Shown here in pieces: positions 37,099-54,331 of a stretch of DNA of 64,000 nt. The first letter of the stretch is position 1. Every line of letters starts with the position of its first letter. The DNA lies in NCBI GenBank assembly GCA_963779865.1, contig CAVZZX010000004.1:42661-106660 (forward strand), read 5' to 3'. The notes under the pieces were generated by a model. The model was given only the letters and a program-made list of their open reading frames with translations. It had not been told where the DNA came from and searched no databases. The stretch comes from an uncultured Gammaproteobacteria bacterium (lineage in GTDB: Bacteria; Pseudomonadota; Gammaproteobacteria; CAVZZX01). Both the position numbers and the translations under genes were made by a program.

Positions 37099-37959
37099 CT
37101 ACGGCCGCCCGCCGGCGCGCCGACAGCGGCCCACCGAACCGGCCAGGCATTCGCGCCCATCCGCCCACAGGGCGTGGTCGAGGCGCACACTGCTGCCCCA
37201 GCGCACGCCGCCGAGTTCAGCGCCGGTGAGGTCGGCATAGGAGAAGTCGGCGCCGCTGACGTTGGCGCCCATGAGGTTCGCACCGCGCAGACTCGCGCCC
37301 TTCAAACGGGCCTGGCGCAGGTCGGCCTGGCGCAGGTCCGCCCCGCTCAGGCCGGCGTACTCGAGGCTGGCGCCGGCGAGCCGCGCCCCCGCCATGCGCG
37401 CGCCGGCCATGCGACTGCTGTCGAGGGTGGCGTTGCGCAGGTCCGCCCGCGCCAGGGCGCGCCCCTCCAGATTGCACTGGCTCCAGTCGACGCGCGGCGC
37501 GGGTGCCGCCCCGCAGTCGCGTCCGCCGCGCCCCGCCGAGGGCGTATAGCGCAAGGCCAGCAGCACCAAGCCCCCCGCAACCAGCAGCACCAGGACGGCG
37601 TGCACCAGCCCCTGGCGGGTCGGACGCGCATCGCCCGGGGCGGCCGCCTTGCGCTCCGGTGCCCGGTGGCGACGGCGGTCCTGGCCGCCGTAGACGGCGG
37701 GTTCGCCGCGGCGCTCATCGGCCCAGCGGCGCGCCGCGCGCAAGCGATCCTGCGCCTCCTCGTCGTCGGGCGCGGCCGACAAGACCTCCGGGATCAACTC
37801 GGGGACGGCCCGCACCGACCGCCACTGTTCGCCGTCCTCGCTGACCTCGTCGTCCAGGCCGATGCGGCCCAACACCAGGTACTGCTGGATTTGGCCCGTC
37901 GGGAACGGCCCTTCGACGCGGCCGTGATGGCGCAGATAACGTGGCTTGCGGCTGGCCAT
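37099..37959 (-). CDS. Membrane protein with a GYF_2-like N-terminus and C-terminal pentapeptide repeats
   Basis: Start MASRK at 37959; GPF...GRI...W motif, one transmembrane segment, A(D/N/R)LxxA repeats (about 37190-37460) flanked by Cys residues. Confidence 0.8.
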   Translation of the reverse strand: MASRKPRYLRHHGRVEGPFPTGQIQQYLVLGRIGLDDEVSEDGEQWRSVRAVPELIPEVLSAAPDDEEAQDRLRAARRWADERRGEPAVYGGQDRRRHRAPERKAAAPGDARPTRQGLVHAVLVLLVAGGLVLLALRYTPSAGRGGRDCGAAPAPRVDWSQCNLEGRALARADLRNATLDSSRMAGARMAGARLAGASLEYAGLSGADLRQADLRQARLKGASLRGANLMGANVSGADFSYADLTGAELGGVRWGSSVRLDHALWADGRECLAGSVGRCRRAGGRP

Positions 37960-38070
37960 GCCCCTCTCGCGAGTGCTTGTGAGCGTACGGCGTGCGCGCT
38001 TACGATCACCGTTCAGGGCATCATAGGCGAAGCGAAGCTTCGGTTTCCATCGACAGGAGATACACACGCG

Positions 38071-39267
38071 TTGGACGCCAATCGGATCAAGGGGAGTGCC
38101 CCGCCGGCACCCGCGGAGGCGCCTGCCGCGCGCACGCCCGTCGGCTGGGGCACCGGGGAGGTGCTCGAGGCGCTGGTCCTGGAACGGCGGCCGAATTCGG
38201 TGCTGCTGCGCGTCGGGGCGCTGCGCGCCGAAGCACGGACTTCGCTGCCGTTGCAGGCGGGCCAGCGACTGGCGCTACAGGTGGTGCGCAGCGGCACGGT
38301 GCCCGTCCTGCGGGCGCTGGACGCAGCGGCGGCATCGGCGACATCGGCGGCCGTGGAACGTGCCCTGCGCACCGCCCTGCCCCGCCAGGACGGGTATCCT
38401 CCCCTGCTGGTCCGGCTGGAGTCGGCCGCCCGTACGCTGCCGCAGGGGGCGCTCGGGCACGCCACCGAGCAGGCGCTGCGAAGGGTGCTCGATGCCCTGC
38501 CGCGCCGCGAGCAGGTCGCCACCGGCGACGGGCTGCGGCTCGCCCTGCTGCACAGCGGAGCCTTCCTCGAGCACCGGCTGTTTGCGGAAGGCGCCGCGGC
38601 CCTGGGTGGGGATCGGGGCGCCGACCTGGGCGCAGCCCTGCTGCGCCTGGCGGCGGCCCTGAAGGCGGGGATGCCGCCGCCGAGCTCGGCGGCGGGAGAA
38701 CCCCGCGACGCGGCCCCGCGGCCGCCGCTCCCGCCGCTGCTCAGCGACGCCCCCCAGCCCCAGGCGCGCCCTGCCTCGCCCGCGGGGCTGGACGACCTGC
38801 CGGGTTTCCTGCGCGGGCTGCTTCACCATGCCGAGGCCGCCGTGGCGCGCCTGCAACTGCATCAACTCGCCAATCTTGACAGCGCCGATGCAAAGGCGCC
38901 GCAGTGGCTCCTGGAGTTGCCGGTACGCACCGCCGAGGGCGCAGACCTGTTCCATTTGGCGATCCGTGAAGAAGAGACCCACAGCGCTGCCGCAAACGGG
39001 GACGCCGCCTGGCAGGTGGAACTCGCCTTCGATCTGGAAGGCCTCGGCCCGATCCAGGCGCGGGTGCGCCTGGCGGGCGGCACGGTGTCGGTGGGCTTCC
39101 ATGCCGAGCAGCCGGCCACCCTGCACCTGCTGGAGGCCCGGCTCGAACACTTCGGGGCCATGCTGCGCGAGCAGGGCTTGGAGGTCGGCCGCCTCGACTG
39201 TGGACCGGGAGGCGTACGCGGCTCCGCACGGCAGCGCGGGCAGCCGCTGGTGGACGAGCAGGCATGA
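38071..39267 (+). CDS. FliK-like flagellar hook-length control domain protein
   Basis: AGGAGA RBS before TTG at 38071; WLLELP, WQVELAFDLEGLGPIQARVRL, ends LVDEQA. Confidence 0.8.
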   Translation: MDANRIKGSAPPAPAEAPAARTPVGWGTGEVLEALVLERRPNSVLLRVGALRAEARTSLPLQAGQRLALQVVRSGTVPVLRALDAAAASATSAAVERALRTALPRQDGYPPLLVRLESAARTLPQGALGHATEQALRRVLDALPRREQVATGDGLRLALLHSGAFLEHRLFAEGAAALGGDRGADLGAALLRLAAALKAGMPPPSSAAGEPRDAAPRPPLPPLLSDAPQPQARPASPAGLDDLPGFLRGLLHHAEAAVARLQLHQLANLDSADAKAPQWLLELPVRTAEGADLFHLAIREEETHSAAANGDAAWQVELAFDLEGLGPIQARVRLAGGTVSVGFHAEQPATLHLLEARLEHFGAMLREQGLEVGRLDCGPGGVRGSARQRGQPLVDEQA

Positions 39268-39629
39268 GGCGCCGCAAGGAGGGGCACCAGAGCGCAGCGA
39301 GGCCGCTGGCGGTTGCCCTGCGCTATGACGGGCGGGGCGCGCCGCGGGTCACCGCCAAAGGGCACGCCGAGGTGGCGGAAAAAGTGCTCGAGATCGCGCG
39401 CGCCCATGGGGTGCCGCTGCACGAGGACCCCGAGCTGGTGGGCCTGCTCGCGCGACTGGACCTGGGCGAGGAGATCCCGCGCGAGCTCTACCTGGCGGTG
39501 GCCCAGGTGATCGCCTTCGCCTATACCCTCAAAGCCAGGGCCGCGGCGGCCGGCGCGGGGGACAGCACGCCGGCCGCCGGGGACGCCGCGCCGGGCAACG
39601 GCGACGAGGGGTCGGATCAGGCGCTCTGA
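39264..39629 (+). CDS. Stand-alone FlhB C-terminal (EscU/YscU/HrcU-type) protein
   Basis: AVALRYDG..APRVTAKG...VPLHEDPEL...EEIPRELYLAVAQVIAFAY; ATGA overlap with the FliK-like gene. Confidence 0.88.
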   Translation: MRRRKEGHQSAARPLAVALRYDGRGAPRVTAKGHAEVAEKVLEIARAHGVPLHEDPELVGLLARLDLGEEIPRELYLAVAQVIAFAYTLKARAAAAGAGDSTPAAGDAAPGNGDEGSDQAL

Positions 39630-40000
39630 TCGAGCCGGTGAAGCATGCCGATGAGCTCGGCCTCGCCCCGGCTCAGCCCGCAGATCTCGACGATTTCATC
39701 GGCGTTCGCCCCCTTGTGCACCAGCCGGATCGCCTGCTCGTACGGTTGGTTGGCCCCGTCGCTGAGGTCCAGACGATCCTGCCGTTCGGTGAGCTGGCGC
39801 TGGCGGCGTTCGATCTGGTGGACCCGCTCGCCGACCCCCACGGCGGCCGAGGTCAGGGCGCGAACGTCGCTGTGCAGCGCCTGGAGGCGGTGCAGCCGGT
39901 CCGCGACGCTGCTCTGCAGGCGCAACACCAGCAGCAGGGCGGCCGCCGCCAGCACGAGTGCCAGCGCCGCGAGGGCGATGAAGAGGTAAGGTGCGATCAT
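39617..40000 (-). CDS. DUF2802 protein
   Basis: N-terminal transmembrane segment, coiled coil, YEQAIRLVHKGA...CGLSRGEAELI. Confidence 0.88.
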   Translation of the reverse strand: MIAPYLFIALAALALVLAAAALLLVLRLQSSVADRLHRLQALHSDVRALTSAAVGVGERVHQIERRQRQLTERQDRLDLSDGANQPYEQAIRLVHKGANADEIVEICGLSRGEAELIGMLHRLDQSA

Positions 40001-40012
40001 GGCGCCGCCGGT

Positions 40013-40168
40013 TCAGGCATATTCATCGATGTGCGGCGGCTCGTCCGGGCGCGGCGCACCGGGCTCCGGCCGCTTGCGGCGCGGGGACTCGCGCCGTTGC
40101 TTGCGCTGGGGGACCGGTCGGGTCGGCCAGGCAGGGCCGGCCGGCGGCACGGGCTCGATATCCGCCAC
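40013..40168 (-). CDS. Unannotated 51-aa Pro/Arg-rich microprotein ending HIDEYA
   Basis: GTG...TGA open frame fills the cheW-DUF2802 gap on the operon strand: MADIEPVPPAGPAWPTRPVPQRKQRRESPRRKRPEPGAPRPDEPPHIDEYA. The RBS is weak. Confidence 0.55.
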   Translation of the reverse strand: MADIEPVPPAGPAWPTRPVPQRKQRRESPRRKRPEPGAPRPDEPPHIDEYA

Positions 40169-40183
40169 ACGATCACGGCGGCG

Positions 40184-40660
40184 TCACAGGGCCGCCACCT
40201 CCTGCCATTCCTCGTCCGACAGGAGCCTGTCCACATCCACCAGGATCAACAGTTCCTCGCCCTGGTTGGACACGCCCTGGATGTACTTGGAGCTCTCGTC
40301 GTTGCCCACATTGGGCGCGGTTTCCATATCGTCCGGCTTGAGGTCGATGACCTCGGCCACGCTGTCCACCAGGATCCCGACCACCTGGCCGTCCGCCTCG
40401 ATGATCATGATGCGCGTCGCGTCGTCGGCCTCCTGGTGGGGCAGGCCAAAGCGCTTGCGCGTGTCGATGACGGTCACCACGTTGCCGCGCAAATTGATGA
40501 TGCCGAGCACGAAGTCGGGGGCGCCGGGCACCGGGGCGATCTCGCTCATGCGCAAAACCTCCTGCACCCGCATGACGTTGATCCCGTACTTCTCGCCCTC
40601 CAGGCAGAACGTCACCCACTGGCTCAGTGCTTCATTCATCTGTTCGGCTGTCTGACTCAT
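40184..40660 (-). CDS. cheW: Chemotaxis coupling protein CheW
   Basis: WVTFCLEGEKYGINV, VPGAP..VLGIINLRG, GILVDSV; GAGGAG RBS. Confidence 0.95.
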   Translation of the reverse strand: MSQTAEQMNEALSQWVTFCLEGEKYGINVMRVQEVLRMSEIAPVPGAPDFVLGIINLRGNVVTVIDTRKRFGLPHQEADDATRIMIIEADGQVVGILVDSVAEVIDLKPDDMETAPNVGNDESSKYIQGVSNQGEELLILVDVDRLLSDEEWQEVAAL

Positions 40661-40726: not shown

Positions 40727-40743
40727 AGCAGGTTGCGTGCCAA
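40727..40743 (-). promoter_or_regulatory. Putative sigma54 promoter upstream of cheW
   Basis: TTGGCACGCAACCTGCT: GG-N10-GC spacing, in the intergenic gap. Confidence 0.65.
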
Positions 40744-53206: not shown

Positions 53207-54331
53207 TCAGTCGTAACGCAGGTCGTCGGGGATCGGGAGATCCGCGACGTCGAGGTGTGGCGCTTTCGTGCCGGCGCGCTTGAGCTGGAACACGTAGGCC
53301 AGCACCTTGGCGACCGCGATATACAGCCCGGCGGGGATCTCGCGCTCCAGTTCGGTGGTGTGATAGAGCGCGCGCGCCAATGGCGGCGCCGCCAGCAGCG
53401 GCACGCGGTGGTGGACCGCAATCTCGCGGATCTTCGCGGCGATGGAGTCGGCCCCCTTGGCGACCACCACCGGCGCCCCGTGACGCTCCTGGCGATAGCG
53501 CAGGGCCACCGCGTAGTGCTGCGGGTTGGTGATGACGACGTCGGCCTCGGGCACTTCGGCCATCATGCGCCGCTGCGCCATCTCCCGCTGCAGGCCACGC
53601 ACGCGCGAGCGGGTCTCCGGGCTGCCCTCGGTCTGTTTGTGCTCGTCCTTGACCTCCTGATGAGACATGCGCAACTGGCGCTTGTGGTCCCAGAGCTGGA
53701 ACGGCACGTCGGCGGCGGCGATCAGCACCAGCGCCGCGCCCAGCAGCAGAAAGGCCGAGAGCAGCAGGTCGCCGGCGTGGGCGATGGCCTGGTGCAGCGG
53801 CTCGAAGCCGAGTCCGATGAACTCCGCGGCCTTGGCATGCAGAAAGCCCACCGCCACCGCACCGATGAGCACGAACTTGAGCAGCGCCTTGAACAGCTCG
53901 ATCAGCCCGCGCCAGGCAAACACCCGCTTGAGGCCGCGTATCGGGTCGAGCTTGTCCCACTTGAAGCCCAGCGACTGCAGGCTGAAGGTCCAGCCGCCCA
54001 GCACGCCGGGGGCCGCCAGCGCCGCCACGCTCAGCAGCACCAGCAGCGGCGCCACGGTGAGCAGGCCGTCGTACACGCCGGCGCTCAGCGCCGCGACGCC
54101 GGCCTGCGGGTCGAAGATCTGGGCGCGGCTGGGCGTGAAGTGCCGGTGCATGAGCGCGAGCAGCCCGTCGATGACCCCCGGCCCCATGAGGCTGCCGCCC
54201 ACGCCCGCCGTCAGCATCAGGAGCATGGTGCTGAGCTCGCGCGAGCGCGCGATCTGGCCCTTCTCCCGCGCCTGTTCACGGCGCCGCGCGGTCGGCTCCT
54301 CGGTGCGTTCCTGATCGTCGTTCCCGGCCAT
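53207..54331 (-). CDS. flhB: Flagellar export switch protein FlhB
   Basis: RTEEPT, KQTEGSPE, NPQH cleavage-site variant, AVALRY. Confidence 0.96.
   Translation of the reverse strand: MAGNDDQERTEEPTARRREQAREKGQIARSRELSTMLLMLTAGVGGSLMGPGVIDGLLALMHRHFTPSRAQIFDPQAGVAALSAGVYDGLLTVAPLLVLLSVAALAAPGVLGGWTFSLQSLGFKWDKLDPIRGLKRVFAWRGLIELFKALLKFVLIGAVAVGFLHAKAAEFIGLGFEPLHQAIAHAGDLLLSAFLLLGAALVLIAAADVPFQLWDHKRQLRMSHQEVKDEHKQTEGSPETRSRVRGLQREMAQRRMMAEVPEADVVITNPQHYAVALRYRQERHGAPVVVAKGADSIAAKIREIAVHHRVPLLAAPPLARALYHTTELEREIPAGLYIAVAKVLAYVFQLKRAGTKAPHLDVADLPIPDDLRYD

Follow-up and report, generated by a model that had tools for sequence, protein, structure and literature searches.

The window analysed here, a stretch of 64,000 nucleotides (nt) from an uncultured Gammaproteobacteria bacterium (assembly GCA_963779865.1, contig CAVZZX010000004.1, positions 42,661 to 106,660), carries a short open reading frame (ORF) that fills the 183-nt gap between cheW (40184-40660) and a DUF2802 gene (39617-40000). 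The DUF2802 protein is FipA, a polarity factor and membrane partner of the polar-flagellum GTPase FlhF (PMC11620751), for which FlrD is another name (preprint 10.1101/2021.08.29.457346). We conclude that this ORF is almost certainly a real, translated and conserved gene, which founds an undescribed family of flagellar microproteins, is coupled to fipA and ends in a C-terminal pentapeptide of the type found in FliK. An earlier note on this DNA had placed a 51-codon ORF on the operon strand of the gap, and the ORF was confirmed at these coordinates, with a GTG start and a TGA stop. The new element is the family itself, which matches no known family, while the gene cluster and the FliK tail motif were already known.

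Conservation of the microprotein gene

An open frame alone is no evidence for a gene at this position because the gap is 77% G+C and five of its six frames are open, and a Pro/Arg/Ala-rich translation is expected of such DNA. To place the ORF among relatives, species-representative genomes were scanned with a FipA alignment, which gave 80 related loci from Ectothiorhodospiraceae, Thiohalomonas, Thiogranum, Thiohalobacter and unclassified gammaproteobacterial metagenome-assembled genomes. Directly 5' of fipA, 63 of these 80 loci contain an ORF of 50-75 amino acids (aa), and the check proposed in the earlier note, a conserved terminus in related gaps, came out in its favour, with a tail of the form H[IV]D[ED][YF][AVI] kept across the family. 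The first distant relatives, from other families of the same class, occupied the same slot and had the same ends (for example ...VWPTRPVEKVD...PPHIDDYA, MVEIRDVRPLGPIWHKRPNE...RPHVDEYA and ...DGHIDAYA). Of 64 members with aligned start codons, 57 begin with ATG and six, the window member among them, with GTG.

When 400 genomes sampled evenly from the class were searched with a family profile built from 62 members, 83 (in 60 of 321 genera) had a match, exactly one in each, while a 400-genome sample of the phylum gave just one marginal partial match. The window protein matches this profile with an E-value of 4.3e-10 over model positions 2-60. Likewise, a library of 1.84 billion proteins yielded 396 clusters at 50% identity, nearly all of them 53-64 aa in length and matched end to end. 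A homologue search with the window protein as a single sequence returned nothing, and profiles alone succeeded. DUF2802 was present in 166 of the same 400 class genomes, and 81 of the 83 microprotein-positive genomes were among them. Inspection of 40 profile-negative loci revealed ~10 further, divergent members (with tails LVDDYA, LIDDYA, HLDEFV, KLDEYI, RLDKYA and LIDEVV), and in ~20 others the cheW stop abuts the fipA start. From these counts the gene would be present in roughly half or more of FipA-bearing Gammaproteobacteria. At a single locus (L189 of genome G125, ~760-1200) the N-terminal motif (...SLIPPAWPIRPL) and the tail (...AIDEYV) lie in different frames with no stop after the tail, and this copy is frameshifted, being either a putative pseudogene or an assembly error.

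In public databases the proteins of the family are named only 'hypothetical protein' and have no Pfam domain. Searches of the window protein and five relatives against Pfam and NCBIfam, with E-values of up to 10, found no model and just two chance matches, to eukaryotic or viral low-complexity families, which were rejected. No public sequencing run among those searched contains the window stretch. The gene is also not described in the literature searched, which covered FipA/FlrD papers, Pseudomonas flagellar-cluster papers, VC2058, VP2224, PP_4331 and the motif strings; fipA itself has been described as lying immediately downstream of the che operon, with the microprotein gene not mentioned (PMC11620751).

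Codon usage within the tail varies at synonymous third positions (His CAT 28 and CAC 22, Asp GAT 39 and GAC 25, Tyr TAT 31 and TAC 30, with all four Ala codons used across members), and in 24 close pairs the ratio of nonsynonymous to synonymous substitution (dN/dS) ranged from 0.03 to 0.72, mostly 0.1-0.3, with a pooled pN/pS of 0.26. Since the synonymous codons of the tail vary while its residues are fixed, and the pooled pN/pS is low, selection acts on the peptide and not on the DNA. Member genomes span ~35-73% G+C, so composition cannot account for the frame. It is extremely improbable that the ORF is not a gene, whether as a chance frame, as an RNA or ribosome-binding element conserved for the sake of fipA, or as an extension of CheW by TGA read-through. 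Such readings could draw on the open frames and composition of the gap, on the lack of a Shine-Dalgarno sequence before the GTG in the window, on the position of the ORF in frame with both cheW and fipA, and on a terminal TGAGG that doubles as the fipA Shine-Dalgarno in many relatives. They have to contend, however, with the conservation of the frame across this range of G+C, with ATG starts that often have a Shine-Dalgarno of their own, and with independent predictions of the gene by gene callers in ~400 clusters; a chance ORF, an RNA element and a CheW read-through are all contradicted by the synonymous codon variation and the pN/pS. The relatives are also mostly out of frame with cheW and lie 15-60 nt from it, and their own ATG starts, the variable frame relative to cheW and a genome without an adjacent cheW (G237, described below) also count against a read-through extension of CheW.

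Terminal motifs and comparison with FliK

The family is recognised by two ends. The N-terminal motif has the consensus M-A-[DE]-[IV]-G-x-[ILV]-x-P-[L]-x-P-[IV]-W-P-x-R-P (also given as MAEIGDIxPLxPIWPxRP), and is followed by a linker of 20-40 residues, variable in both length and sequence, rich in K/R/E/P/Q and with an acidic run at its end, which leads to the C-terminal tail. The window protein has the N-terminal motif, the tail and a stop within ~15 nt of the fipA start, which together define the family. AlphaFold2, run on a 62-sequence alignment, gave no secondary structure, with a mean predicted local distance difference test (pLDDT) of 69.5 and a predicted template modelling score (pTM) of 0.16, and in this model the microprotein looks like a disordered chain with one short linear motif at each end.

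The genome has two Flg_hook proteins, of which canonical FliK, encoded 3' of fliJ on another contig, ends in ...AHGLLDTYA. Escherichia coli K-12 FliK ends in VDIFA, which confirms the ending that the earlier note had given for enteric FliK. Canonical FliK from 19 other microprotein-carrying genomes ends in MLDVFA, LLDTYA, LVDYYA, LVDKYA, LVDDYI, LVDAYV and similar sequences, a class that can be written [LVM][LV]Dx[YF][AVI]. A second FliK-like protein, FliK2, is encoded beside fipA, and its LVDEQA ending, pointed out in the earlier note, was read from its translation. The 58 FliK2 paralogues that we compared (L013-L092, downstream of fipA) share a conserved tail that is particular to them, L-[LIV]-[DRS]-E-[KRQE]-[AV]-COOH, in which a basic residue occupies the position where canonical FliK has Tyr or Phe. 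Comparison of the three sets position by position (Table 1), with His preceding the pentapeptide in 61 of the 81 microproteins, indicates that the microprotein tail is a combination of the invariant positions of the FliK tail with the Glu typical of FliK2. The suggestion that the microprotein mimics a FliK tail was thus borne out for the type of tail, although the neighbouring paralogue on which it had been based is a poorer match than canonical FliK with its LLDTYA.

Table 1. Residues at the last five positions of the microprotein, canonical FliK and FliK2 (number of sequences)
Position	Microprotein (n=81)	Canonical FliK (n=21)	FliK2 (n=58)
-5	I/V 78	V/L 21	aliphatic 57
-4	D 81	D 19	D 34, R 11
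-3	E/D 73	variable	E 43
-2	Y/F 81	Y/F 21	K/R 41
-1	A/V/I 80	A/V/I 21	A/V 57

An ending of the form [ILVM]D.[YF][AVI] is rare in this genome. Among 43,591 ORFs of 40 aa or more from all six frames, only four have it, namely FliK, the microprotein, an unrelated 504-aa protein and a doubtful 172-aa ORF. The microprotein (IDEYA) has in common with FliK (PF02120) the pentapeptide class aliphatic-D-x-[YF]-[AVI]-COOH, a disordered C-terminal region, an acidic cluster before the tail and a location in the flagellar regulon. It is nevertheless not a member of the FliK family, as FliK is 335-490 aa in length compared with ~55 aa and has a T3S4/Flg_hook domain and a ruler region, whereas the microprotein has neither (no Pfam match, and no structure with AlphaFold2). 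FliK2 tails of the form L[LIV]DE[KR][AV] resemble the microprotein in the aliphatic-D-E and terminal A/V positions, but there is no aromatic residue at -2 in FliK2, which also has a folded T3S4 domain. This difference between the paralogues suggests that tail and receptor may be paired in a paralogue-specific manner, with FliK2 possibly paired with FlhX, a stand-alone copy of the cleaved C-terminal subdomain of FlhB that is encoded next to it.

Coupling to fipA and the surrounding locus

FipA/FlrD (PF10975; VP2224 in Vibrio parahaemolyticus, VC2058 in V. cholerae and PP_4331 in Pseudomonas putida) is always encoded next to the microprotein and on the same strand, and the taxa with the microprotein fall within those with FipA. 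The two proteins differ in that FipA has a transmembrane (TM) helix, a coiled coil and DUF2802, none of which was found in the microprotein with Pfam. Typically the microprotein stop lies within TGAGGTnnnnnnATG, where TGAGG serves at the same time as the Shine-Dalgarno of fipA, 9-12 nt before the fipA start, and other members have an ATGA overlap between the two genes instead. In the window the fipA ATG (40000) is 12 nt 3' of the microprotein stop (40013-40015) and in the same frame, as it is in 32 of 63 loci, a relation that follows from the fixed stop-to-start spacing of 9-12 nt. The TGA stop of cheW is 15 nt 5' of the microprotein start and also in frame, a relation that seems accidental from the loci compared. 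As a result, a single frame in the window (39617-40660, minus strand) runs through cheW, the microprotein gene and fipA and is broken by two TGA codons, the first followed by five codons and GTG and the second by four codons and ATG. A natural fusion with CheW or FipA, which would have been Rosetta-stone evidence, was considered for a long open frame in genome G358 and rejected, as this consists of separate genes with an ATGA overlap.

Genome G237 (L126, 127-1629) has the order fliA, microprotein gene (ending KHIDERV) and fipA, with no cheW, and the microprotein gene still overlaps fipA. This order, together with the conserved spacing or overlap, shows that the gene belongs with fipA and not with cheW, and on the same comparison the microprotein gene appears to be translationally coupled to fipA.

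Such strict linkage raises the possibility that the microprotein serves FipA and FlhF as a cofactor, which would bind FipA, FlhF or a pole organiser through its two motifs and modulate FlhF recruitment or the number or placement of flagella, its FliK-like tail being a coincidental convergence. The gene occurs only directly 5' of fipA and stays there where cheW is absent, nearly all profile-positive genomes are also DUF2802-positive, its presence is independent of flhX, and FipA is an established partner of FlhF (PMC11620751). We nevertheless regard this role as somewhat doubtful, if nearly as likely as the role at the export switch that is discussed below, as it leaves unexplained an exact match to the FliK pentapeptide, an ending that occurs in ~1 in 10,000 ORFs. 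An AlphaFold2 model of the in-frame read-through of microprotein and FipA (TGA read as Trp, with 33 naturally paired rows from the window and 32 relatives) also showed no docking, although this is a weak test with a monomer, a blocked tail carboxylate and no FlhF. In that model FipA was predicted with a pLDDT above 90 as a long helix and a small helical bundle, while the microprotein part was coil with a pLDDT of 51-66.

The genes and elements of the locus are listed in Table 2. On the minus strand the operon runs cheB, motC, motD, parC, parP, cheW, the 183-nt gap and the DUF2802 gene. The earlier note had the microprotein gene downstream of a sigma54 promoter, and we did find a sigma54-like element with one mismatch, 4 nt past the parP stop and ~65 nt 5' of the cheW ATG; this is a motif match only, and such matches are fewer in the window than in shuffled sequence, so that the site is not statistically distinctive. 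It could act as an internal promoter from which cheW, the microprotein gene and fipA are transcribed, and an internal promoter in the corresponding region has also been inferred in a study of P. putida (preprint 10.1101/2021.08.29.457346).

Table 2. Features of the microprotein locus and of flhB, in window coordinates
Feature	Position	Strand	Remarks
Microprotein gene	40168 -> 40013	-	GTG start, 51 codons and TGA; encodes MADIEPVPPAGPAWPTRPVPQRKQRRESPRRKRPEPGAPRPDEPPHIDEYA
N-terminal motif, residues 1-18	40115..40168	-	MADIEPVPPAGPAWPTRP; from family alignments, P18 conserved in at least 90% of rows
C-terminal tail HIDEYA, residues 46-51	40016..40033	-	family form H[IV]D[ED][YF][AV]-COOH
cheW	40184..40660	-	PF01584, E 4.7e-42; ATG at 40660 with GGAG Shine-Dalgarno 5' of it
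fipA / flrD	39617..40000	-	PF10975 (DUF2802), E 1.8e-23; TM helix, coiled coil, DUF2802
flhX, stand-alone copy of cleaved FlhB C-terminal subdomain	39264..39629	+	PF01312, profile positions 261-334
fliK2, FliK paralogue	38071..39267	+	Flg_hook/T3S4 domain; TTG start after AGGAG; ends LVDEQA
flhB, full-length export-switch protein	53207..54331	-	cleaved C-terminal domain is the proposed FliK-tail receptor and a candidate target of the microprotein tail (inferred from PMC13344023)
sigma54-like -24/-12 element, TGGCAC-N5-CTGC	40728..40742	-	TGGCACGCAACCTGC; parP-cheW spacer; one mismatch to TGGCAC-N5-TTGC

The flhX gene is convergent with fipA, and their 3' ends overlap by 13 nt. FlhX starts just past the position of the N/P(T/Q)H cleavage site, with ...PLAVALRYD... 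corresponding to ...NPQH-YAVALRYR... in FlhB, and has an Ala/Gly/Asp-rich C-terminal extension of 30 residues past its FlhB-like part. The autocleavage site of the FlhB family is normally NPTH, and in the full-length FlhB of the window it reads NPQH (...VVITNPQHYAVALRY...). In P. putida fliK2 and flhX (PP_4328 and PP_4329; FlhX is also found in Helicobacter pylori as HP1575) form a FliA-dependent operon of which the function is not known (preprint 10.1101/2021.08.29.457346). Divergent from fliK2, at 37099-38067 on the minus strand, is a gene for a protein of ~300 aa with a central hydrophobic segment and a C-terminal pentapeptide-repeat region (...ADLRNATLDSSRMAGARMAGARLAGASLEYAGLSGADLRQADLRQARLKGASLRGANLMGANVSGADFSYADLTGAEL...).

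Possible roles at the flagellar export switch

The last five residues of FliK are important for switching (PMC10965912), and a 2026 study proposed that the switch consists in the FliK-dependent ejection of FlhB's cleaved C-terminal domain (FlhB-CCD), with the same five residues modelled and proposed to engage and eject this domain (PMC13344023). Both papers uphold the earlier note in its statement that the last residues of FliK are needed for FlhB-dependent switching. FlhX, as encoded in the window, is a free copy of the ejected domain. From the likeness of the tails we tentatively favour a role in which the microprotein tail engages the receptor of the FliK tail (FlhB-CCD, perhaps also FlhX), so that, at the nascent polar flagellum, it acts as a competitor of FliK or a modulator of export switching, and we consider this possible, if still rather short of probable. 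The microprotein would present its FliK-type tail to FlhB-CCD, possibly to FlhX, at the nascent flagellum, the presented tail would then rival FliK or adjust when switching occurs, and the N-terminal motif would hold the microprotein to another polar or flagellar partner. Here the binding of the tail to FlhB-CCD, its effect on switching and the identity of the partner of the N-terminal motif are the parts that we infer. A fuller version, in which a cytoplasmic microprotein mimics the FliK switch tail, is delivered via FipA-FlhF, occupies the FliK-tail site on FlhB-CCD and sets when or whether ejection occurs, is unlikely to hold in all its parts.

Several observations weigh against a role at the FliK-tail receptor. 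When the family was aligned with FliK C-termini using hhalign, the single best local alignment did place its last five columns on the last five of FliK, but the similarity covers these five columns only, with a P of 0.03-0.04 and a homology probability of 1-2%; as the match is limited to five columns, it indicates a shared motif, and common descent is not shown. The likeness of the tails could therefore be a convergence on a different receptor. Some divergent members also lack the aromatic tail residue (HIDEVV, as in genome G339, HIDERV and LIDEVV), and we found no covariation of the terminal residue (A/V/I) between microprotein and FliK within genomes. Approximately one third to one half of FipA-positive genomes have no microprotein gene, and the fact that the gene is so strictly linked to fipA is at least as good an argument that it acts with FipA and FlhF. 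Variants of FliK from which the folded T3S4 core is missing can be secreted but fail to switch (PMC13344023), which makes a bare tail more likely to be a competitor or a tether than an activator.

The occurrence of flhX likewise counts against a dedicated partnership. It was found in 26 of 30 microprotein genomes compared with 16 of 20 FipA-positive genomes confirmed to be without the microprotein, and with no specific co-occurrence the specific module with a stand-alone FlhB-C domain that the earlier note had envisaged falls away. The fliK2-flhX pair adjoins fipA with or without the microprotein gene, convergent to fipA in most loci including the window, and judged by these gene orders the adjacency of microprotein and flhX is a reflection of the synteny of fipA with fliK2-flhX. 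The pair also differs from the microprotein gene in being on the opposite strand, whereas the microprotein gene is part of the che-fipA operon and occurs independently of flhX. All three, FliK2, FlhX and the microprotein, are alike in being uncharacterised candidate accessories of the export switch.

Two other roles would also make use of the FliK-type tail. As an adaptor, the microprotein would have its N-terminal motif on FipA-FlhF and its tail on FlhB-C, and would either tether the nascent gate to the pole or report gate assembly to FipA/FlrD signalling. An architecture with a flexible linker between two motifs suits a tether, the genetic linkage to fipA and the match of the tail to FliK would each account for one end, and FlrD (FipA) is reported, in work cited in the preprint 10.1101/2021.08.29.457346, to stimulate FlrBC-dependent flagellar transcription; we regard an adaptor as distinctly unlikely, however, as it needs two unproven interactions and the read-through model showed no docking on FipA. 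Very unlikely is a secreted 'mini-FliK', an early flagellar type III substrate made up of an N-terminal signal, a linker and a FliK tail, without the ruler or T3S4 core, that would act in transit or as a decoy. The predicted disorder of the whole chain is that of the termini of export substrates, the tail matches that of FliK, and the short, hydrophobic and Pro-rich N-terminus is loosely like that of FliK (MPSLLPVPASPGP in FliK of this genome and MADIEPVPPAGPA in the microprotein), but this likeness of the N-termini is weak and a product of composition, no FxxxΦ gate-recognition motif (Φ, hydrophobic) is visible, and there is no link to an export chaperone.

For a competitor at the FliK-tail receptor, the role that we tentatively favour, Salmonella offers a functional parallel in Fluke (Flk/RflH), a non-structural accessory that prevents premature FliK-dependent switching (PMC13344023). 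Preventing premature switching is the kind of role that a competitor of the FliK tail could play, although this is functional speculation only, as Fluke has no sequence relationship to the microprotein and is a large membrane protein with a tail anchor, its presumed target being FlhA.

Work on flagella and on injectisomes has long asked how the passage of FliK brings about an irreversible change of export specificity, and here is a protein of ~55 residues, found in nature and with predicted disorder, that bears the switch pentapeptide without the core domain of FliK. It is genetically tied to the FlhF-FipA system, which decides the site and number of flagella, and may link the study of polar placement with that of export switching, which are normally separate fields. 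Where the cheW-fipA region has been knocked out or has received a polar insertion, the microprotein gene may have been hit unnoticed, and the gene gives flagellar biologists a natural reagent together with a clean genetic handle. If the mimicry of a short linear motif is real, it would be a new type of export-switch control, a further level at which the type III export specificity switch is regulated, functionally analogous to enteric Fluke.

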